Shown here piece by piece: positions 5,169 to 15,455 of a DNA stretch of 24,000 nucleotides; the first letter of the stretch is position 1, and each line of letters opens with the position of its first letter. The stretch lies in NCBI RefSeq assembly GCF_015666175.1, contig NZ_JADPIE010000001.1, positions 105,741 to 129,740 on the forward strand, given 5' to 3'. The notes beneath the pieces were generated by a model. That model was not told where the DNA came from and searched no databases. It saw only the letters and a program-made list of their open reading frames with translations. This DNA is from Halonatronomonas betaini (GTDB lineage Bacteria > Bacillota > Halanaerobiia > Halanaerobiales > Halarsenatibacteraceae). Both the position numbers and the translations under genes were made by a program.

Positions 5169-5576
5169 ATGAAAAGGATAGTGGCAGATTTTGACCTCTG
5201 TACTGGCTGTGAGACCTGTGCTTTAGTCTGCTCCTTTACCAGGTTAGGAGGATTTAATCCTGATAGATCCTGCATTGACTTGAATCTATTTGCAGATGGA
5301 GTCTTTAATTTTCCAGAGATCTGTCATCAATGCAGCAGAGCTGTATGCAGTCAGGTCTGCCCTACAGGGGCAATGCAGGTTGATAGAGAAGCTGGTGTTG
5401 TTAGGGTAGATCAGGTTAGCTGTATAGCCTGTGGTCAGTGCGAAGAGGCCTGCCCTGTTGATATGGTTAAGGTAGACAAAAATCTTAACTATGCCCTAAA
5501 ATGTGAGCTCTGCCAGGGTGAGGTTCCCTGTGTTAAAGCCTGCCCTGCAGATGCTCTGGGGGTGTATAGCAGATGA
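5169..5576 (+). CDS. 4Fe-4S polyferredoxin, electron-transfer subunit of AOR (AorA-like)
   Basis: 135 aa with four Cys clusters: CTGCETCALVC, CHQCSRAVCSQVCP, CIACGQCEEACP and CELCQGEVPCVKACP. The stop overlaps the AOR start (ATGA at 5573-5576). Confidence 0.9.
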   Translation: MKRIVADFDLCTGCETCALVCSFTRLGGFNPDRSCIDLNLFADGVFNFPEICHQCSRAVCSQVCPTGAMQVDREAGVVRVDQVSCIACGQCEEACPVDMVKVDKNLNYALKCELCQGEVPCVKACPADALGVYSR

Positions 5577-7372
5577 AATATGGCAGTTATATGGGACGCT
5601 TCTTGGAGATTGATTTAACATTTAATGCTACAAAAGAAATTGAGCTTGATGATCAGTTGATAGAAGAATATGTTGGCGGGAAGGGCTTTGGTGTAAAGCT
5701 TTATCAGGATTATATTGATGATTCAGTGGGGCCGCTAAGTCCTGATAATGTTCTTTTCTTTCTGACCGGTCCACTTACTGGAACATTTGCTCCAGCTATG
5801 CGTTCAGTTGTTGTGACTAGATCGCCGTTGACAGGTGGCTGGCTCGATTCCTATTTTGGCGGTTATTTTGGTCAGGCTATTAAATATGCTGGCTATGATG
5901 GTCTGATAATTAAGGGAAAGGCAGATCATTTATCATATTTAGTAATAGATAATGGGAAAGTAGAGGTCAAATCTGGTATAAAATTAAAAAATCTTTCAAC
6001 TTCTGAGACTGCTGCTAGAGTTAAAGAACTACATGGCGGTAATTACAGAGTTGCTACCATTGGTCCGGCCGGTGAAGAACTGGTTAAATATAGTCTAATT
6101 TCCTGTGAGAATAACCGTCAGGCTGGTCGTGGTGGTGCCGGGGCTGTGATGGGTAGCAAGAATCTTAAAGCTATAGCAGTAAAAGGCGATTATTTGATTG
6201 AAGTGGCTGACAGGTCTAAGTTTGTTGAAGCTGTAGATAAAGCCAGGCAGGAACTTGATGAATCTGCTGATATCGATAATTTCCGTGAGAATGGGACACC
6301 ATCATCTATTCCCTTTGCCAATGAAATTGGAATGCTGCCAGCATGTAATTATAATAAAGGACAATTTTCTGAAGCTGAAAACCTTGAAACAGAGCCACAA
6401 TCAGAGCTTTTCTGGAATAGAGATTTAGCCTGTAGTGGTTGCCCGATTGCCTGTGGCAAAATTGGTAGAATTCGCCATGGCAAGTATAGTGGCATGCTGA
6501 CAGATACTGTAGAATACGAGACTCTGGGTCTATTAGGTTCAAATCTGGGGCTTGGTGATATCCGTGAAGTCACTAAACTGGCCAATCTTTGTGATGAATT
6601 AGGCCTTGATACAATTTCAGCTGGTGGTGCAATCGGTTTTTTGATTGAAGCAATAGATAGAAATCTTTATTCTGATCCTGAACTTGGAAGCCTGGATTTT
6701 GGTAAAGCTGAAGCAATCAGAGAAATGATTAAGCTAATAGCCTTTAGAAAAGGTCGGACGGCAGGCTTACTGGCAGAAGGTGTTGAAGAATTTTCTGATA
6801 AGATTGTTGGTGGCAATAAATTTGCTATTCATATTAAAGGCCTTGAGACACCGGCCTGGCCGCCCCGGGGAGCACCAGGGATGGGGCTGGCTTTAATGAC
6901 AGCAGATAGAGGGGGCTGTCACCAGCGTTCATTTCCTGTATCTCATGAAGTTGGTGGTCTGGAATGGCAGGGCAAGAAGCTGGAGCGGCTTTCGACTGAT
7001 GGCAAGGCCAGTTTGGTTGTTTACCAGCAGAACAAGCTGGCGGCCCTTGATACTCTGGTTAAATGTGATTTTGGCACCTATGGCATCAGCGAGGAAAGTT
7101 ATAAGTTGATGCTGGAGGCTGCTACCGATCTTGAATTGTCCGGCGATAATCCCTGGCAGGAGCTTGGTTCTAAAATCTGGGATGAAACCAGAAAGATAAA
7201 TATAATGCACGGCTTCGATAAGGAAGATGATACATTGCCAGCCCGGTTTATGGAAGAACCATTGCCTGATGGCCCGGTTGAAGGTCATATGATTACTGAG
7301 GAAGATCGGGAAGAAATGCTGACTGAATATTACAGGCTGAGAGGCTGGAACTCTGATGGTGAAGTAAATTAA
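5573..7372 (+). CDS. aor: Aldehyde:ferredoxin oxidoreductase, tungsten/pterin AOR family
   Basis: 599 aa. N-terminal AOR domain (GRFLEIDLT...GGKGFG). Fe-S ligand motif CSGCPIAC plus a later GGCHQRS. Pterin-binding DELGLDTISAGG. Confidence 0.92.
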   Translation: MKYGSYMGRFLEIDLTFNATKEIELDDQLIEEYVGGKGFGVKLYQDYIDDSVGPLSPDNVLFFLTGPLTGTFAPAMRSVVVTRSPLTGGWLDSYFGGYFGQAIKYAGYDGLIIKGKADHLSYLVIDNGKVEVKSGIKLKNLSTSETAARVKELHGGNYRVATIGPAGEELVKYSLISCENNRQAGRGGAGAVMGSKNLKAIAVKGDYLIEVADRSKFVEAVDKARQELDESADIDNFRENGTPSSIPFANEIGMLPACNYNKGQFSEAENLETEPQSELFWNRDLACSGCPIACGKIGRIRHGKYSGMLTDTVEYETLGLLGSNLGLGDIREVTKLANLCDELGLDTISAGGAIGFLIEAIDRNLYSDPELGSLDFGKAEAIREMIKLIAFRKGRTAGLLAEGVEEFSDKIVGGNKFAIHIKGLETPAWPPRGAPGMGLALMTADRGGCHQRSFPVSHEVGGLEWQGKKLERLSTDGKASLVVYQQNKLAALDTLVKCDFGTYGISEESYKLMLEAATDLELSGDNPWQELGSKIWDETRKINIMHGFDKEDDTLPARFMEEPLPDGPVEGHMITEEDREEMLTEYYRLRGWNSDGEVN

Positions 7373-7385
7373 TATAATGATTAGC

Positions 7386-7411
7386 AAGGCGGCTTCTGGC
7401 CGCCTTTTTTT
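7386..7411 (+). terminator. Rho-independent terminator
   Basis: Hairpin aaggcggc(t)-tct-(g)gccgcctt (7386-7406) followed by a T run to 7411, 14 nt after the aor stop. Confidence 0.85.
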
Positions 7412-7482: not shown

Positions 7483-7511
7483 TTGTAAAAGTCTGAAAAT
7501 TATATTATAAT
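7483..7511 (+). promoter_or_regulatory. Candidate sigma-A promoter upstream of the TVP38 gene string
   Basis: TTGTAA (7483-7488), 17-nt spacer, then TATAAT (7506-7511). Confidence 0.4.
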
Positions 7512-7816: not shown

Positions 7817-8512
7817 ATGACAATGAAAGCTAATAAGAATAATCGGTTCAAATCATTAATTATATTAGTGATTTTAATTGTAGCTATAATCTTTATTCGG
7901 TTTTTAGGATTACATGAATATATAAGTATTGAAAATATTGAGTTGCTGCAGGATTTGGTTGCAGATTTTGGGCTTTTAGCTCCTATTGCTTATATTTTAC
8001 TCTGGCTTTTAGTCTGCCTCTTATTTTTGCCAGGTCTGCCTGTAACAATACTTTCAGCCTTCTTGTTTGAACCTTTACAGGCCATTATATATACTTCAAT
8101 CGGTTCTACATTAGGTGCAACCCTGGCATTTGTAGTTGGCAGATATGCTGCTCGAGATTTTGTTGCTAACTGGATAAAAGATAAAAAACAGTTAAATAAG
8201 ATTGATAAAGGAGTTAAAAACCATGGCTGGAGAATGCTTATAGTAACAAGGATGGTACCATTATTTCCATTTAATCTTCAGAATTACATCTATGGTTTAA
8301 CTTCTATTAAATTAAAGACTTATATGTTTTTATCCTGGGTCTGTATGTTACCTGCTACCATTGCCTATATTCTAACAGCTTCTTCAATTTATAGAGGAGA
8401 AGGGGATTTAACTCAAACTTTTATTTATCTCGGAATTGCTGGTCTGATATTTTTTATATTGTCATTAATACCAAAATGGTTTAAGAGCAAAGGTTATATT
8501 CAGGATAGTTAA
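7817..8512 (+). CDS. TVP38/TMEM64 (DedA-superfamily, VTT domain) membrane protein
   Basis: 231 aa and multi-TM. VTT-type core LPGLPVTILSAFLF...GATLAFVVGRYAARDFV...RMVPLFPFNLQNY. The second ATG at 7823 has better spacing to AGGGG (7810-7814) and may be the true start. Confidence 0.85.
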   Translation: MTMKANKNNRFKSLIILVILIVAIIFIRFLGLHEYISIENIELLQDLVADFGLLAPIAYILLWLLVCLLFLPGLPVTILSAFLFEPLQAIIYTSIGSTLGATLAFVVGRYAARDFVANWIKDKKQLNKIDKGVKNHGWRMLIVTRMVPLFPFNLQNYIYGLTSIKLKTYMFLSWVCMLPATIAYILTASSIYRGEGDLTQTFIYLGIAGLIFFILSLIPKWFKSKGYIQDS

Positions 8513-8532
8513 TCTAACTGGAGTTGATACAG

Positions 8533-9126
8533 GTGTTGGACACTCATGCAAGAAAATATTTTGACTCGATTATTAATTTCACTGCTAAATCTATAGCAGA
8601 TCTCGGCTTGAATTCAAATCAGGTTACTATTATCGCTGCAGCAGTTGGTGTTTTTACAGGGTTACTGGTCTATCTGGATCAGTTTATTGCTGCTATCATT
8701 GTATTATGGTTATCAGGTTTTTTAGATGCAGTTGATGGGGCAATTGCCAGATTAAATAATAAAGAGTCTATGTGGGGAACTGTTCTAGATATTACTTTAG
8801 ATAGAGTTGTTGAAATATCATTTATTATCGGTCTGGCTTTTAGGTTTCCTGAGATTAGATTAAATTTATTATTTATGACAGTCAGTATAATTCTTTCATT
8901 AACTGTATTTTTAACTGTTGGTGCTGTCTCTGAAAAATCCAGGATAAAGTCATTTCATTATCAATCAGGATTGATGGAGAGAACAGAAGGATTTATATTA
9001 TTTACAGTATTTTTAGTATTACCAGATTTTATTTATGGATTGACTATACTATATGCAGTTCTGGTGTTGTTTACTGCTATTCAGCGCTTTAATGAGGCCA
9101 GCAAATTATTGAGTAGGGCTGATTAA
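8533..9126 (+). CDS. CDP-alcohol phosphatidyltransferase family protein
   Basis: The signature D-x2-DG-x2-AR-x8-G-x3-D-x3-D is present as DAVDGAIARLNNKESMWGTVLDITLD. The protein is multi-TM. GTG 8533 lies 9 nt after GGAG; the ORF-track TTG at 8524 abuts the SD. Confidence 0.85.
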   Translation: MLDTHARKYFDSIINFTAKSIADLGLNSNQVTIIAAAVGVFTGLLVYLDQFIAAIIVLWLSGFLDAVDGAIARLNNKESMWGTVLDITLDRVVEISFIIGLAFRFPEIRLNLLFMTVSIILSLTVFLTVGAVSEKSRIKSFHYQSGLMERTEGFILFTVFLVLPDFIYGLTILYAVLVLFTAIQRFNEASKLLSRAD

Positions 9127-9176
9127 TATTTATTGATGGATTAGATAAAAGTTTTATTAAGAAGGCAGGTGAAATA

Positions 9177-9668
9177 ATGTTATTTACTATTGCTATATTG
9201 ATTGTTATTTTGGCCGGAATAATTGCGTCAGCTTTTGTAGAATATATATTACATAAGCTATTCCTTCATCAGGAAGGCCATATTCACCTTTTAGAGCATC
9301 ATAAAAATTTTAAGCCTCAAGAGAGTACATTTACCCGGGAGAGTTTTGAGTTAGATGAAGTTTTTTCTGGGATTAAATATTTACTTGCAAACTTTCTGCT
9401 GTATCTTCCAATTGGCATTATAATAGGTATTTATTCTTTCAATTTAGGTTTAGTATTTTTATTAAGTGGACTTTTATATTCAGCCTGGATTGAAATTGTT
9501 CACTATCATTATCATCATATCGATGGGATAAAATTTGAAAGATTTAAATTGTTTAATTATTTAAAATCAAATCATAAGATTCATCATGCCTTATATAAAT
9601 TCAATTTCGGGATTGGTTCAAGTATCTGGGATATTATACTGGGCACAAGCAGAAAAGGTTGGAACTGA
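9177..9668 (+). CDS. Small membrane protein of the fatty-acid hydroxylase / sterol desaturase (tri-His-box di-iron) superfamily
   Basis: 163 aa. His boxes HKLFLH, HYHYHH and HKIHH interleaved with hydrophobic segments. Its size resembles the smallest members of the superfamily. Confidence 0.65.
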   Translation: MLFTIAILIVILAGIIASAFVEYILHKLFLHQEGHIHLLEHHKNFKPQESTFTRESFELDEVFSGIKYLLANFLLYLPIGIIIGIYSFNLGLVFLLSGLLYSAWIEIVHYHYHHIDGIKFERFKLFNYLKSNHKIHHALYKFNFGIGSSIWDIILGTSRKGWN

Positions 9669-9712
9669 TATGTTTGGATTGTTAATGGTTAGCTTATGGC
9701 GGGGAGGTTGAG

Positions 9713-11128
9713 ATGGCAAAATTTGATTATGATATAGCTGTAATCGGAGGGGGCTCAGCTGGTTTAACAGCTGCTTTTACAGCCAATGCGGTAAAGAAAA
9801 ATGTCGTGATAATTGAGCAAGATAGATTAGGTGGAGAATGTACCTGGACAGGTTGTGTGCCCAGTAAGGCTCTCCTAAAAGCTGCCAGAGTTGCTTATCA
9901 AAGCCAACATGCCAGCAAGTATGGTATTATCAATGATTGTAATATTGATATGAGTGGAGTAATGAATTATGTCCATAAAGTTCAGGAAGAAATCTATCAA
10001 AAAGAGAAGCCAGAAGTATTAAGAGCAGATGGGATCGGTGTTTTAATCGGAAAAGCCGAATTTATAGACAGCCATACATTAAGTGTAAACCAGAATAAAA
10101 TTAGGGCTCATAAGATAGTTATTGCAACAGGTTCCTCTCCAGCTATTCCGCCAATAGAGGGTATAGAAGATGTTTTTTATTTAACCAATCAAACCTTATT
10201 TGGCCTGGAAAAGTTGCCAGCATCATTAATAATTATTGGTGGTGGTCCAATAGGAATTGAGATGGCCCAGGCTTTAAATAGATTAGGTGTAGAAATTAAA
10301 CTTGTGCAGAGAGGCGAAAGAATTTTAAAGAAGGAAGAACCGGCTTTAAGTGGGGCTCTGGCTGAAAAGTTACGCAAGGAGGGCGTTGAGCTATTAACCG
10401 GTTATGAGGCTGTTAAAATTAAAGAAGAAAATCAATTAATACTAACTGTGAGTAATAGGAAAATGGAAAAAGAATTAAAAGCGGAAAAAGTCTTAATAGC
10501 AGCCGGGAGAAAAGCTAATATTACTGGGTTTAATCTTGATAAGATAGGTCTTGAAACTGGCAGCCAGGGGATTATAACCGATAGTAAGATGCAGACCAAT
10601 ATTTCTAATATTTATGCCTGTGGTGATGTTGTAGGCCCCTATCGTTTTAGTCATATATCATATCATGAAGGTATAACTGCAACAATAAATGCAATCTTAC
10701 CTTATCCTGTTAAGAAAATGAACTATGATAATGTATTATGGGTTACCTATACAGACCCAGAATTAGCCCATTTAGGCCTGACTGAGGAACAGGCCAGGGA
10801 TAGATATGGCGATAGCATAAAAGTCTATAATATGGACTATTCTGAGCTGGATAGGGCTATGACAGATGGCCAGGCAGGCCAGGCTAAATTTATCTGCGAT
10901 AAAAGAGGTAAATTGTTAGGAGCTCATATCTTTGGTGCTAGAGCAGGTGAGATTATTCATAGCTGTCAGATTATAAAAACGATGGGAATGCCTTTTAAGA
11001 AATTACAATCTGTGATTCATTCATACCCGACTTATTCTGAACTTGTAAGGGACGGAGCTAAACTGGCCTATATAGGTGACTGGCAAGATAGATTGAATTT
11101 AGTTAATAAATTAGCCTGGTGGAAATAA
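9713..11128 (+). CDS. Class I FAD-dependent pyridine nucleotide-disulfide oxidoreductase (dihydrolipoamide dehydrogenase / mercuric reductase-like)
   Basis: 471 aa. GGGSAG FAD fold, redox-active GGECTWTGCVPSK (CxxxxC), second Rossmann fold IIGGGPIGIEMA, and C-terminal dimerisation domain with HSYPTYSE. It lacks the MerA C-terminal Cys pair and the NmerA domain. Confidence 0.9.
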   Translation: MAKFDYDIAVIGGGSAGLTAAFTANAVKKNVVIIEQDRLGGECTWTGCVPSKALLKAARVAYQSQHASKYGIINDCNIDMSGVMNYVHKVQEEIYQKEKPEVLRADGIGVLIGKAEFIDSHTLSVNQNKIRAHKIVIATGSSPAIPPIEGIEDVFYLTNQTLFGLEKLPASLIIIGGGPIGIEMAQALNRLGVEIKLVQRGERILKKEEPALSGALAEKLRKEGVELLTGYEAVKIKEENQLILTVSNRKMEKELKAEKVLIAAGRKANITGFNLDKIGLETGSQGIITDSKMQTNISNIYACGDVVGPYRFSHISYHEGITATINAILPYPVKKMNYDNVLWVTYTDPELAHLGLTEEQARDRYGDSIKVYNMDYSELDRAMTDGQAGQAKFICDKRGKLLGAHIFGARAGEIIHSCQIIKTMGMPFKKLQSVIHSYPTYSELVRDGAKLAYIGDWQDRLNLVNKLAWWK

Positions 11129-11142
11129 GGAGGAGTGATAAC

Positions 11143-11805
11143 TTGATATTAGGTATTAGTGGAAGTGGTCGTAAAAATGGAACCACTTCAGGTGTAATTA
11201 AGTATATTTTAGAGAATACAGGAGAAGAATATGAGTACATATCACTGGCAGGTAAGCAGATTAATGGCTGCATAGGATGTACTGAATGTGCAGCTGATAG
11301 TTTCTGTAAGGTGAAAGATGACTGGCAGGAAATTGGTTATAAGATGCTGGAAGCTGATGCAATAGTTTTTGGTGCACCGGATTATTATGACACCTTAAAT
11401 GCTCTGGCTCATGCCTGTCTTGAAAGAACTTATTGTTTCCGGCATAGAGAGAAATTTAAGCTGGCAGGTAAATTAGGTGTGGCAGTGGCTGTTGATGGTG
11501 ACCCAGAGGTTTCCAGAGTTGAAACTTACATCAAAAGGATGATGGATTCAAATCAGATGGCAATTATGGATAAACTACATGTCGAAGGTTATTCTCAGTG
11601 TTTTACCTGTGGTTATGGTGAGGACTGTGCAGCTGGCACAGTTGTTAAGAGACATGGCTTTTTAGATGAGATTAAGACTGAGCATCTGCCTGATAAATTT
11701 TCTGATCAACCAGATAAAATGTTAAAAGCTAAAATGATTGCTAGAAATCTTGGCTCATTACTAAAAGATAGAAGTGATAATAATGAAAACATCAAGGAAA
11801 ACTGA
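11143..11805 (+). CDS. Iron-sulfur flavoprotein (Isf-like), NADPH-dependent FMN reductase fold
   Basis: LILGISGSGRKNGTT flavodoxin-like N-terminus. Compact CIGCTECAADSFC (CX2CX2CX5C) as in Methanosarcina Isf. A second CFTCGYGEDC group is present. TTG 11143 follows AGGAGG (11128-11133). The ORF-track GTG at 11119 lies inside the upstream gene. Confidence 0.8.
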   Translation: MILGISGSGRKNGTTSGVIKYILENTGEEYEYISLAGKQINGCIGCTECAADSFCKVKDDWQEIGYKMLEADAIVFGAPDYYDTLNALAHACLERTYCFRHREKFKLAGKLGVAVAVDGDPEVSRVETYIKRMMDSNQMAIMDKLHVEGYSQCFTCGYGEDCAAGTVVKRHGFLDEIKTEHLPDKFSDQPDKMLKAKMIARNLGSLLKDRSDNNENIKEN

Positions 11806-12202
11806 TTATGGGATTCATGCTTTAATGATTTTAGCAAAAAAGGATGGTGAAGAGCTATCGGTTAATGATCTTGCTGAGATTGAAAATGTTTCAACTTCCT
11901 ATCTGGCCAAGGTTATGCAGGAACTTTCAAATTATAATATTGTCAGTTCTTCAGAGGGTAAACAGGGTGGTTATACGCTCAACCTTCCTACTGAAGAAAT
12001 AACCCTGGCCCAGGTAACAGATATTTTTGAAACTGATGAAGGAGTATTTGATTGTGTTGATGATCTCCATGGTTGTAATATCAGAGATAGGTGTAAAATT
12101 CATTTTGTCTTCAGAAAGGCCTATCAGAAAATGCTGGCAGAACTTGAGGCAACAACTATTGCAGATCTATTGGATCCAGAAATAAAGGGTATCGTCAAAT
12201 AA
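11783..12202 (+). CDS. Rrf2-family transcriptional regulator with three-Cys (probable Fe-S) motif
   Basis: MKTSRKTDYGIHALMILA... winged-helix N-terminus typical of Rrf2. CVDDLHGCNIRDRC (Cx6Cx5C) occupies the position of the cluster ligands. The gene overlaps the Isf stop. GTG 11774 is an alternative start. Confidence 0.85.
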   Translation: MKTSRKTDYGIHALMILAKKDGEELSVNDLAEIENVSTSYLAKVMQELSNYNIVSSSEGKQGGYTLNLPTEEITLAQVTDIFETDEGVFDCVDDLHGCNIRDRCKIHFVFRKAYQKMLAELEATTIADLLDPEIKGIVK

Positions 12203-12213
12203 GGGGGGGAATT

Positions 12214-12759
12214 ATGGCCTGGATTGATATGGTTGATGAAGATAAAGCAGAGGGGAAATTAAAAGAAGTATATGAAAGAATTACTGGAGGAGGTAGCTCA
12301 AGGGTTGCCCATATATTAAAGGTTCATTCTTTAAATCCTCAGGTGCTGGAGGATCACCTTAACTTATATAAGACAATAATGTTTGCTAGTTCGAATATTT
12401 CTCGGAAACAGCGGGAGATGGTTGCAACGGTAGTTTCGGCTATTAATGACTGCCATTATTGAGTAATTCATCATGGAGCGGCGCTCCAGAAACTGATTAG
12501 AGATAAAAGTGAAGGCGAGAAGATTTTAAATCAGCTTATTGATGATTACAGGGCTGCTGAAATTACTGATAAAGAGAAGGCTATGCTGGAATATGCTGAG
12601 AAGCTAACCAGGAAACCGGCATCTATTGATATAACAGATATTGAGAGTTTAAGAGAATATGGACTTGGTGATCGGGATATTCTTGATTTAAATCAGGTGG
12701 TGGCTTATTTTAATTATGTCAATAGAGTGGCAGATGGCCTGGGGATAGAGTTAGAGTAG
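12214..12759 (+). CDS. AhpD-core / carboxymuconolactone decarboxylase family 'peroxidase-related' protein with in-frame TGA (12460-12462) read as selenocysteine
   Basis: SD AAGGGGGGG lies before ATG 12214. The same frame continues for 98 codons past the TGA to TAG 12757-12759. The motif SAINDCHY-TGA-VIHH matches NxCxYCxxxH with TGA at the second Cys. A hairpin follows the TGA. Confidence 0.7.
12467..12500 (+). promoter_or_regulatory. Candidate bacterial SECIS stem-loop
   Basis: Upper stem tggagc/gctcca (12474-12479 / 12483-12488) with a GGC apex. Lower stem 12467-12473 / 12494-12500 with one mismatch and a 3'-side gaaac bulge. The apex G residues lie about 20 nt 3' of the UGA. Confidence 0.5.
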
Positions 12760-12882
12760 TTATATTTATAAATTAAAAGTGATATACTTATTATTTTAAA
12801 GGAATATACTAAGGGATATTGAACTATTTATATGTAAATAAATTTTATATGAAATTAAATGAAATAAAAATGGGGAATTCTC

Positions 12883-14037
12883 ATGGTTAAAAAGCTAACA
12901 GAATATCTGATTAATTTGAAAAATAATATCTTATCACAGGAAGATTTTTTAATGACTGAAAAGTTAAAATCTGAATTTGATAAAGAAACTTTTAATCATA
13001 ATACTTTTATTATTATTATTTTAGGCTATTTTCTTTTCTTTGAACAACTTTTTTATGCGTTTTTTGTTAGAGAACCAGGCAGTACCTATCAACAAATACA
13101 TTTTATAACTGCTCTTTTAATGATTCTATTTGCTGGAATTGCAACTTATATTTATCAAAAAGATTTTACAAAAGTTAATAAATATCACAAAAAGTTTGTG
13201 ATTATTTTTGTTTTGAGTGGATTGCTTATAGCCATAGTGAGAACATCATTACTACAATTACAACTCTATTCATTGCCTACAATTTATTTAGCTGTAATTT
13301 ATGGCATGGCAGTTGCTTTTTACTTTCCACCAATACTGAGCTTTGCATTATACAGTTCTTCATCTATCCTTTTGATATTTTTATTATCTGGCCAGCCTAT
13401 TGCTCAGGAGTTTTCATATGTCCAGGATATAATCTCAAACAATATAATTGCCTGGGTTGTTTCAGTTCTCAACTTTAATAGTTATTTCAATGGTTTTATT
13501 AAAAGCAAAAAGATTTCTGATATGAATGGTAAATTAAGATATATATCAGAAAGGGATCCTTTGACTGACCTATATAATAGACGTAAATTGAATGACTTAT
13601 TGATTGATGAGATTAAAAGAATAGGGAGAACTAATGAGTTTTTTTCAGTTATAATTTTAGATATTGATAATTTCAAAAATGTCAATGACACTTACGGACA
13701 TAATATAGGGGATGAAGTATTAGTCAATTTTAGTGAAATATTAAAATCTAATATTCGTGAACTTGATAAGCCAGGTCGCTGGGGCGGGGAGGAATTTTTA
13801 ATAATTGCACCAGCTACAGATAAGAAAGGTGCAGAGAATCTAGCTAAAAAGTTAAAAAAATTAATTAATAATAATGATTTTGGTAAACCAGAGAGATTAA
13901 CTGCAAGCTTTGGTGTAGCTACTTATAATCATGAAGAGTCAGTTTATCAATTGATCAACCGGGCTGATAAAGCTCTTTATGAGGCCAAATCAACTGGCAA
14001 GAATAGAGTTATTGTTTATAATCAAGGTATTTCATAG
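12883..14037 (+). CDS. Membrane-bound diguanylate cyclase (multi-TM N-terminal sensor + GGDEF domain)
   Basis: 384 aa with a hydrophobic N-terminal half. FKNVNDTYGHNIGDEVL, the active site GGEEF, and an I-site RELD exactly 5 residues upstream of GGEEF. Confidence 0.9.
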   Translation: MVKKLTEYLINLKNNILSQEDFLMTEKLKSEFDKETFNHNTFIIIILGYFLFFEQLFYAFFVREPGSTYQQIHFITALLMILFAGIATYIYQKDFTKVNKYHKKFVIIFVLSGLLIAIVRTSLLQLQLYSLPTIYLAVIYGMAVAFYFPPILSFALYSSSSILLIFLLSGQPIAQEFSYVQDIISNNIIAWVVSVLNFNSYFNGFIKSKKISDMNGKLRYISERDPLTDLYNRRKLNDLLIDEIKRIGRTNEFFSVIILDIDNFKNVNDTYGHNIGDEVLVNFSEILKSNIRELDKPGRWGGEEFLIIAPATDKKGAENLAKKLKKLINNNDFGKPERLTASFGVATYNHEESVYQLINRADKALYEAKSTGKNRVIVYNQGIS

Positions 14038-14060: not shown

Positions 14061-15455
14061 ATGAAGATTAATAAAATCATGAAAAAATTAATTTTAGCTT
14101 ATATAATATATTTCTTATTGGCTGGAATAATTGTGTTTGGCTTTTTGCCAGTTCCAGGAGTTGAATCGGCTATGGATTATTCTCTTGATGAGTCGATTTC
14201 AGTTAGTAATGGTCAGGATGAAGCTTTATTGCTTGAAGGGCTAGAGATTGGCAAGCTTGCTAGAGTTAATCTGATAGAGAATGCCGAAGAGAGCCTGGAT
14301 ATAGCATATTACATGGTGCATAAAGGTGATGCTGCAGATATCTTTTATGGCCAGATTTTAGATGCTGCAGACCGTGGTATTAAGGTAAGGCTAATAATTG
14401 ATGGAATCTATTCAGCTCAGCCTCAAAATAGAAGTTATATTTATGCCATGACTTCCCATGAAAATATAAAGTTTAAAACATATGAGCCTATCAATCCGTT
14501 AAGGCCCTGGGCTGTCCAGAACCGTCTCCATGATAAAATTGTTATTGCGGATGGCAATTATGCATTAATTAGTGGCAGGAACATAGGTGACAAATACTTT
14601 GATCCAGATATTGAAACTCCATCGATTGATAGGGATGTTCTTTTAGTAAATGAAGAGCCTGGAGCTGACTCTGTATTGACTCAGTTTGATGATTATTATG
14701 ATAAATTATGGGAAAGTGAATTTAATAAAAATTACAGTGATTTGAACTCAGCCAGGGAGCGGCTAGCCAGAAGGAGGGTTGAGGAGATAAATAATAGTCA
14801 TCAGGAATTGCAGGATAAATATAGTGAACTATTTGGCCAGGATCTTGATTGGCAGAATTATTCATATCCAACAGATCAGGTAATGCTAGTCCATAATCCC
14901 CTGGAGAGGTTTAATAAGCAACCCAGGGTCTGGCAGGTTTTAGCTGGACTTTTTGAAGAGGCTGAAGATAGCATTATGGCCCAGAGTCCATATATTATTC
15001 CAACTGATCAGATGTTAAAGTTTTTGGACCAGGAAGAAATTACAGCTGGAAAGATTAATCTATTGACTAATTCATTAACAAATAGTTCAAATCCATTAGC
15101 TGGCTCAGGTTATAGCCTCTTTCAGGATGACTTGAAAGATTTTATTGGTGATAGAGGTAAGCTTTACGAGTATTATAATAATGGAGCTATTCATGCTAAA
15201 TCCTATGTTATAGATGAGAGGATCAGCGCAATTGGTTCCTTTAACCTTGACCACAGGAGTGCATTTTTAAGCACAGAGACTATGGTCATTATAGAGAGTG
15301 AACCATTTGCTGAGAACTTTTTAAGTCAGGTTGATGGGTTGATAGAACAGTCCTACCCATATCAGGAAGCTCCAGAGGAAGAGGTTTCAACTGCTAAGGA
15401 AATTAGTTTGCGCGGCTTATCTTATTTTAGCAGGTTTTTTAAGTTTATGCTCTGA
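14061..15455 (+). CDS. Phospholipase D / cardiolipin synthase-like protein with two HKD motifs and an N-terminal membrane anchor
   Basis: HDKIVIADGNYALISGRNIGD and HAKSYVIDERISAIGSFNLD (HxKxxxxD...GxxN twice). N-terminal hydrophobic helix LILAYIIYFLLAGIIVFGF. Starts 23 nt after the GGDEF gene. Confidence 0.88.
   Translation: MKINKIMKKLILAYIIYFLLAGIIVFGFLPVPGVESAMDYSLDESISVSNGQDEALLLEGLEIGKLARVNLIENAEESLDIAYYMVHKGDAADIFYGQILDAADRGIKVRLIIDGIYSAQPQNRSYIYAMTSHENIKFKTYEPINPLRPWAVQNRLHDKIVIADGNYALISGRNIGDKYFDPDIETPSIDRDVLLVNEEPGADSVLTQFDDYYDKLWESEFNKNYSDLNSARERLARRRVEEINNSHQELQDKYSELFGQDLDWQNYSYPTDQVMLVHNPLERFNKQPRVWQVLAGLFEEAEDSIMAQSPYIIPTDQMLKFLDQEEITAGKINLLTNSLTNSSNPLAGSGYSLFQDDLKDFIGDRGKLYEYYNNGAIHAKSYVIDERISAIGSFNLDHRSAFLSTETMVIIESEPFAENFLSQVDGLIEQSYPYQEAPEEEVSTAKEISLRGLSYFSRFFKFML

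Follow-up and report, generated by a model that had tools for sequence, protein, structure and literature searches.

The 24-kb stretch of DNA analysed here (Halonatronomonas betaini, contig NZ_JADPIE010000001.1, positions 105,741 to 129,740; referred to below as the window) carries on its + strand, at 12214-12759, a gene for an AhpD-like protein whose reading frame contains a TGA at the position of a redox-active cysteine. This is very probably a genuine selenocysteine (Sec)-encoding gene that was mis-split by open reading frame (ORF) calling. As far as can be judged from sequence, the case for UGA as Sec rests on four lines: the use of the genetic code in the window, the occurrence of Sec/Cys pairs among relatives, the coding character of the DNA downstream of the TGA, and a hairpin with the geometry of a bacterial selenocysteine insertion sequence (SECIS). 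All of these support the selenoprotein reading of the in-frame TGA that had been put forward in a preliminary description of this DNA.

Reading frame and active site of the split gene

The frame starts on the + strand with an ATG at 12214-12216, separated from the stop codon of the preceding Rrf2 gene by a gap of 11 nt, and direct reading of the sequence shows a Shine-Dalgarno-like G-run on the same strand (12203-12209) 4 nt 5' of the start codon. It then reaches the in-frame TGA at 12460-12462 and continues through 98 sense codons to a TAG at 12757-12759. The coordinates of the 82-aa ORF ending at the TGA and of its open continuation are all as the preliminary description had claimed. The joined product comprises 181 aa with Sec as residue 83, its homology is unbroken across the TGA, and substitutions on either side are of the coding type. 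Within the 24-kb window no other + strand TGA is flanked on each side by 50 or more open codons, and reading through the other 23 gene stops adds only 0-26 codons.

Despite this continuity, the ORF list of the window shows the gene only as an 82-aa piece (12214-12462) and a 58-aa piece (12583-12759), with the identical division in a public gene call for this contig (Logan SRR13552879_61). The expectation that the locus would normally be annotated as a truncated gene is borne out by this call and by the relatives, which are present in databases largely as C-terminal fragments.

Profile matching was carried out on the joined 181-residue protein with Cys substituted at the TGA. The NCBIfam model TIGR01926 ("peroxidase-related enzyme") is matched with 154.6 bits (curated cut-off 81.8), and the match runs end to end, with residues 2-178 placed on profile positions 1-173 of 178. 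The Pfam model for carboxymuconolactone decarboxylase (CMD, PF02627) is matched with 39.1 bits against a gathering score of 23, which indicates membership at the level of the fold only, without any implication of decarboxylase activity. Both profiles agree with the earlier assignment of the protein to the AhpD-core 'peroxidase-related' CMD family. An orthologue of the Mycobacterium tuberculosis-type AhpD is ruled out, as TIGR00777 scores 16.6 bits, far under its cut-off of 191.95. Likewise rejected were NF041238 ("alkylhydroperoxidase-related (seleno)protein, CFYUT"; score 78, cut-off 175) and NF053654 ("YciW-related (seleno)protein"; score 36, cut-off 310), which also combine a CMD fold with Sec in a CxxU motif but constitute separate sister families.

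The solved homologues 2PFX, 3C1L (Mlr4105), 2OYO and 6K40 (DR1765 of Deinococcus radiodurans) align over nearly the whole length with E values from 1e-30 to 2.5e-26 and share the same N-x-C-x-Y-C-x-x-x-H region. They differ in having Cys in place of Sec, for which no SECIS is needed. In each of these alignments the TGA column corresponds to the second Cys of CxxC, one example being the pairing of INKCFYCLVAHGAA in a solved Cys homologue with INDCHY[TGA]VIHHGAA. The proposed location of the TGA at the second redox Cys is therefore confirmed by homologue alignment, with Cys in this column in all four structures and in 34 genomic Cys forms. The UGA at 12460-12462 (+ strand) would accordingly place U83 at the second, nucleophile-equivalent position of C80-H-Y-U83. 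Residues E68, C80, Y82, U83 and H87 match the spacing of the AhpD proton relay (Glu-X11-Cys-X2-Cys-X3-His), which is formed by Glu118, Cys130, His132, Cys133 and His137 in M. tuberculosis AhpD and by Glu36, Cys48, Tyr50, Cys51 and His55 in PA0269 (PMC3141380). An alignment of 34 sequences (A1) shows no variation at E68, Y82 and H87 and very little at C80.

The TGA/Cys column in relatives and the downstream hairpin

Relatives of the protein were drawn from a search of 5.8 billion proteins, of which the top 120 clusters were tallied, and codons were surveyed at 80 loci from GTDB representatives with one genome per species. At these 80 species loci the redox column is encoded by TGA in 46 cases, by TGC in 18 and by TGT in 16, and by no other codon. 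The column is read as Sec because only Cys codons alternate with TGA among the 80 species. TGA forms were found in Halanaerobiaceae, which are also the closest named relatives in the species-genome survey, and in other Bacillota, among them the cultured Bacillaceae Pseudalkalibacillus, Rossellomorea aquimaris, Fictibacillus iocasae and Bacillus sp. SG-1. They further occur in Chloroflexota, Acidobacteriota, Gemmatimonadota, Marinimicrobia, Planctomycetota and Acidimicrobiia.

At the protein level the relatives are of three kinds, namely full-length proteins with Cys at the column, full-length proteins with "W", and fragments of ~105 aa that begin one residue past the TGA column ((M/V)VHHGAAL...), some of which are named "peroxidase-related enzyme". 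Of the top 120 clusters, 30 have Cys and 20 have "W", and at least 56 are C-terminal fragments. Two relatives have neither C nor U at the redox column, P0060 carrying R (CHYRVVHHGAAL) and P0051 carrying S (CEYSLSHH).

The W that several public pipelines put at the redox column of homologues, together with the single database relatives carrying R and S, could be taken to mean that UGA here specifies one of the standard amino acids (Trp, Gly, Cys or Arg) without selenium, either under translation tables 4/25 or through near-cognate read-through. This is very unlikely. TGA serves as the ordinary stop of four other window genes (ending at 5576, 9668, 11805 and 15455), and the 23 other coding frames of the window contain 0 in-frame TGA versus 79 TGG; for these reasons the organism is considered to use the standard code, with the TGA at 12460-12462 as an exception. 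Furthermore, the "W" of the databases corresponds to TGA in the DNA (checked in locus L001), the sole alternative codons in the 80 species encode Cys, which is a signature of Sec, and the hairpin described below fits the SelB-type SECIS model.

The DNA past the TGA behaves as coding sequence. In 45 tabulated TGA loci the frame remains open for 92-150 codons beyond the TGA, compared with a median of 13 for the two remaining frames. In comparisons with the three closest relatives (92%, 85% and ~69% amino-acid identity), third codon positions account for 13/22, 32/50 and 44/83 of the differences past the TGA, respectively. Synonymous changes outnumber non-synonymous ones in this part of the gene in the two closest relatives, and the same pattern is seen before the TGA.

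A candidate SECIS follows the TGA on the + strand. Its upper stem-loop at 12474-12488 consists of a 6-bp stem (UGGAGC/GCUCCA) and the apical loop GGC at 12480-12482, and a predicted extension of the lower stem (12468-12496) is weak. The apical GG lies 21-22 nt from the U of the UGA, the spacing between UGA and loop is 17 nt, and the folding energy with short flanks is -8.9 to -9.2 kcal/mol. The published model for bacterial SECIS elements comprises a loop of 3-9 nt, an upper stem of 4-16 bp, a G in the first two loop positions, a distance of 16-37 nt from the UGA and a minimum free energy of at most -7.5 kcal/mol (PMC13188914), and the window hairpin with short flanks satisfies all of these constraints. 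The same filter for position, loop and energy is passed by 8/993 TGA trinucleotides of the window (0.8%). Searches against Rfam found no relevant family, either in the whole window at gathering thresholds or in 12380-12580 at E <= 10; the three matches obtained were each far under the gathering score.

The significance of the hairpin derives from its conservation in relatives rather than from the stability of a single sequence. In 48 TGA forms, nt 11-40 fold with a mean energy of -8.2 kcal/mol, versus -3.9 kcal/mol in 34 Cys forms (Mann-Whitney p = 4e-9), and a hairpin with a loop start at nt 20-25 and a G in the first two loop positions is present in 43/48 TGA and 4/34 Cys forms (Fisher p = 5e-13), with the reservation, to be held against the Sec reading, that both p-values treat related species as independent. 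The loops of the TGA forms are GGC (24), GGUC (7), GGUCU (6) and GGU (2). Stem sequences vary by clade with pairing kept, as in GGAGC/GCUCC, GGAGA/UCUCC, GAGAA/UUCUC and GCGGAG/CUCCGC. Computed on an ungapped, codon-registered alignment, covariation of the window-type structure is 0.294, compared to 0.151 ± 0.016 in shuffles (reached by 0/500) and to no more than 0.144 in slid registers. Changes on both sides are found at pairs 18-32 (UA/CG), 20-30 (GC/CG) and 23-27 (CG/AU). In columns 16-34 of alignment A2, equivalent to window positions 12472-12490, both the register of the hairpin and its loop (GGC, GGUC or GGUCU) differ among clades. The peptide encoded there is HHGAAL, HHGEAL or HHGEGL in Sec forms and HHAEAL in Cys forms; this peptide shifts along with the hairpin, which means that the RNA element and the encoded protein co-evolve. 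The GC-rich hairpin of the preliminary description, for which bacterial SECIS geometry had been claimed, thus not only has this geometry but also shows conservation and covariation across TGA forms and is mostly absent from Cys forms.

Several further observations weigh against the gene as a functional selenoprotein gene. The bare 15-nt hairpin reaches -7.4 kcal/mol and passes the -7.5 threshold only when extended by 3-4 flanking nt, and compared with shuffles of the 64-nt stretch the hairpin is not significant (z = -0.24). RNAalifold predicted no consensus pairs in an ungapped alignment of 46 sequences. This null result is attributed to clades folding in registers 2-3 nt apart, and RNAalifold was replaced by the per-sequence folding with Cys-form controls and by the pair count on a named structure reported above. 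In one lineage of relatives (L002:4230-4245 and L003:8036-8051; JGI 3300017921 / 3300017919), whose C-terminal half is 74% identical, a 2-nt (GT) deletion right behind the TGA shifts the frame, with both halves and the hairpin otherwise intact. ARAGORN detected no tRNA, and thus no tRNA-Sec, in the 24-kb window, and selA, selB, selC and selD were found neither there nor in a further ~15 kb of the contig, giving ~39 kb of the genome in which none is present; this additional part contains sugar-catabolism genes only. No second selenoprotein gene is located nearby, and scanning ten related loci for TGA-interrupted genes yielded nothing convincing. A peroxiredoxin/AhpC partner is lacking as well, with an AhpC-TSA/Redoxin domain in 0/24 window genes, and no enzymology was found in the literature for any Sec-form member of the family. 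As for the machinery, tRNA-Sec candidates and five predicted selenoproteins have been described in Halanaerobium praevalens (PMC5330540), which by analogy is support at the level of the clade only.

The frameshifted lineage leads to the question of whether the window gene is itself a decaying pseudogene, in which an ancestral TGC/TGT turned into TGA, an 82-residue fragment or nothing at all is made, and the downstream frame is open by chance. A single base change would suffice for this, and both the deletion in L002/L003 and the lack of sel genes in the ~39 kb examined would be in line with it. Such decay is nevertheless highly improbable: TGA has been kept in 46 species of many phyla with long open frames behind it, synonymous changes prevail past the TGA just as before it, and a structured RNA element co-occurs specifically with TGA. 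The deletion could be a very recent inactivation, an assembly error shared by both loci, or something else; it is confined to one lineage, against ~48 TGA forms that are intact, and leaves the window gene untouched. Frame disruption in close relatives, which the preliminary description had named as a sign of decay, was hence encountered in this single lineage, while the window gene and the other TGA forms are free of it. Finally, two separate small genes of 82 aa (12214-12462) and 58 aa (12583-12759) are exceedingly improbable, for although automatic calls on the same contig give precisely these two products and an ATG is present at 12583, this ATG is without Shine-Dalgarno evidence, the stretch from the TGA to ATG 12583 (residues 84-123) is conserved and can be aligned with the central part of full-length Cys homologues and of PDB structures, and TIGR01926 is matched across the split.

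Proposed decoding, chemistry and relation to known proteins

If the gene is decoded according to the established bacterial Sec mechanism, from which the following steps are drawn, the apical GG of the hairpin at 12474-12488 would be bound by SelB·GTP·Sec-tRNA(Sec) as the ribosome nears the UGA. SelB would then deliver Sec at this codon in competition with release factor 2. A failure of Sec insertion, for example upon selenium limitation, would be expected to leave the 82-residue truncated peptide.

Based on what is known of the AhpD family, U83 would take the place of the second Cys of the AhpD CxxC within the relay E68-C80-Y82-U83-H87. Its selenolate may attack a peroxide directly or, alternatively, an oxidised partner such as a peroxiredoxin or an Ohr/OsmC-type peroxidase. 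C80 would resolve the intermediate to give a selenenylsulfide, which would be re-reduced by an upstream electron donor. AhpD proteins are fed by flavoprotein/lipoamide systems, and a deletion mutant of the Cys homologue DR1765 is sensitive to H2O2, with complementation requiring the CxxC (PMC8945050).

The family itself is not new, as the preliminary description had rightly stated, and AhpD-like CxxU selenoproteins have been catalogued since 2005. In that year a Sargasso Sea study introduced "AhpD-like protein, COG2128, CxxU" as a selenoprotein family not known before, giving 27 sequences and showing the SECIS in a figure (PMC1088965). A 2008 survey of Global Ocean Sampling (GOS) data ranked it as the fourth most abundant selenoprotein family, with 299 Sec and 902 Cys forms (PMC2398784). 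It also appears in a 2026 review as "AhpD-like protein | TIGR01926 | CxxU" and can be browsed in BSepDB. The window protein shares with this family (named "AhpD-like 1" in the Sargasso Sea and GOS data) the same model, the CxxU motif, a SECIS with an apical G and the coexistence of Sec and Cys forms. Because every testable defining feature is found, a known selenoprotein family gains a member. Nothing essential differs, but the family was first known from marine metagenome reads without genomic context, while the window member comes from a soda-lake, Halanaerobiaceae-like member of the Bacillota and lies in an Rrf2/flavoprotein operon. The lineage and operon context of this member have not been specifically described before.

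The comparison with M. tuberculosis AhpD shows both parallels and differences. The proton-relay spacing is identical, and in that system electrons pass from lipoamide/flavoprotein to the CxxC and on to AhpC. However, its catalytic helices are at another topological position (PMC3141380), and the window protein has no adjacent ahpC and a Tyr in place of His132.

The value of the finding lies chiefly in annotation, as a full-length gene is now split and one selenoprotein is added to a soda-lake anaerobe. If correctly annotated, the gene implies Sec decoding and a selenium requirement in this organism. An electron-donor hypothesis for the family is offered by the operon context; the knowledge of recoding and of the family is otherwise unchanged. 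Public protein sets are inconsistent for this family, with a TGA=Trp table applied in 20/120 clusters and fragments in at least 56/120, and gene callers split it routinely. A contig matching the window was also observed in Logan SRR13552879, JGI 3300000361 ("SL_6KL_011_BRINE") and GCA_001563815.1, from hypersaline soda-lake brine.

Probable operon and neighbouring genes

The selenoprotein gene is the last of seven co-directional genes on the + strand, with gaps of -23 to +50 nt. The first three encode a VTT/DedA-type membrane protein (7817-8512), a CDP-alcohol phosphatidyltransferase (8524-9126) and a fatty-acid-hydroxylase-family protein (9177-9668). These are followed by a class I flavoprotein disulfide reductase (9713-11128) with Pyr_redox_2 and dimerisation domains and the active site GGECTWTGC, by a member of the NADPH-dependent FMN reductase family (11143-11805), and by an Rrf2-family regulator of 139 aa (11783-12202) whose gene is overlapped by that of the FMN reductase by 23 nt. 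The Rrf2 start is ATG 11783 in public calls and GTG 11774 in the ORF list. The regulator contains a C-x6-C-x5-C triad like that of IscR/NsrR-like family members, which bind Fe-S. The seven-gene run is preceded by a hairpin resembling a terminator (7386-7406) and by a promoter-like site (7483-7511), and promoter and terminator scans within 9000-13000 gave nothing above shuffle expectation.

Parts of this arrangement recur in relatives. An Rrf2 gene lies directly 5' of the AhpD-like gene in the closest relatives as well (L002/L003, L004, L005 and L008), and an FMN reductase gene adjoins it in L004, L008 and L040 and is also present in L002. In L002, the AhpD-like gene is flanked by a Grx-fused reductase and a peroxiredoxin, the latter 3' of the gene. 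Disulfide reductase homologues occur within 6 kb of the AhpD-like gene at 7 Sec loci and 3 Cys loci. The flavoprotein disulfide reductase at 9713-11128 is the inferred electron donor to the selenoprotein. Electrons would pass from NAD(P)H through the flavoproteins, which would keep the C-x-x-U protein reduced, and an Fe-S/redox-sensing Rrf2 would control the seven-gene unit as one responsive to redox stress. Such an NAD(P)H-flavoprotein-CxxU relay under Rrf2 is the most likely arrangement and the most economical reading of the operon.

In three distant Bacillaceae genomes (L020:6551-12516, L029 and L046), homologues of three proteins of the seven-gene run are encoded beside a TGA-form gene. 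They comprise a CDP-alcohol phosphatidyltransferase (54-57% identity), a VTT/DedA protein and a flavoprotein disulfide reductase (~41%), with an ABC transporter in between. This linkage to genes of the membrane-lipid type is recurrent and unexpected and hints at a membrane-linked role of the selenoprotein. Perhaps, rather than being a generic peroxidase helper, the selenoprotein forms the last redox component in a dedicated module associated with the membrane, although this seems unlikely. Its partners would be the VTT/DedA protein, the phosphatidyltransferase, the fatty-acid-hydroxylase-family enzyme, the disulfide reductase and the FMN reductase, co-transcribed under the Fe-S Rrf2. Such a module, if real, could be a conserved system that repairs or remodels membrane lipids after oxidation, or one that handles selenium.

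Outside the seven-gene run, in the region 5169-7406, a gene for a 4Fe-4S ferredoxin-like protein extends into the start of a gene for an aldehyde:ferredoxin oxidoreductase of the tungsten-enzyme family. The hairpin at 7386-7406 is the only strong intrinsic-terminator-like hairpin seen and is followed by an AT-rich intergenic region of 444 nt. On the 3' side of the selenoprotein gene, an AT-rich spacer of 123 nt contains a promoter-like site (12765-12794) and is followed by genes for a membrane-anchored GGDEF diguanylate cyclase (12883-14037) and a PLD/cardiolipin-synthase-like protein (14061-15455). GGDEF genes are also located a few kb from the AhpD-like gene in L008, L019, L031 and L051.

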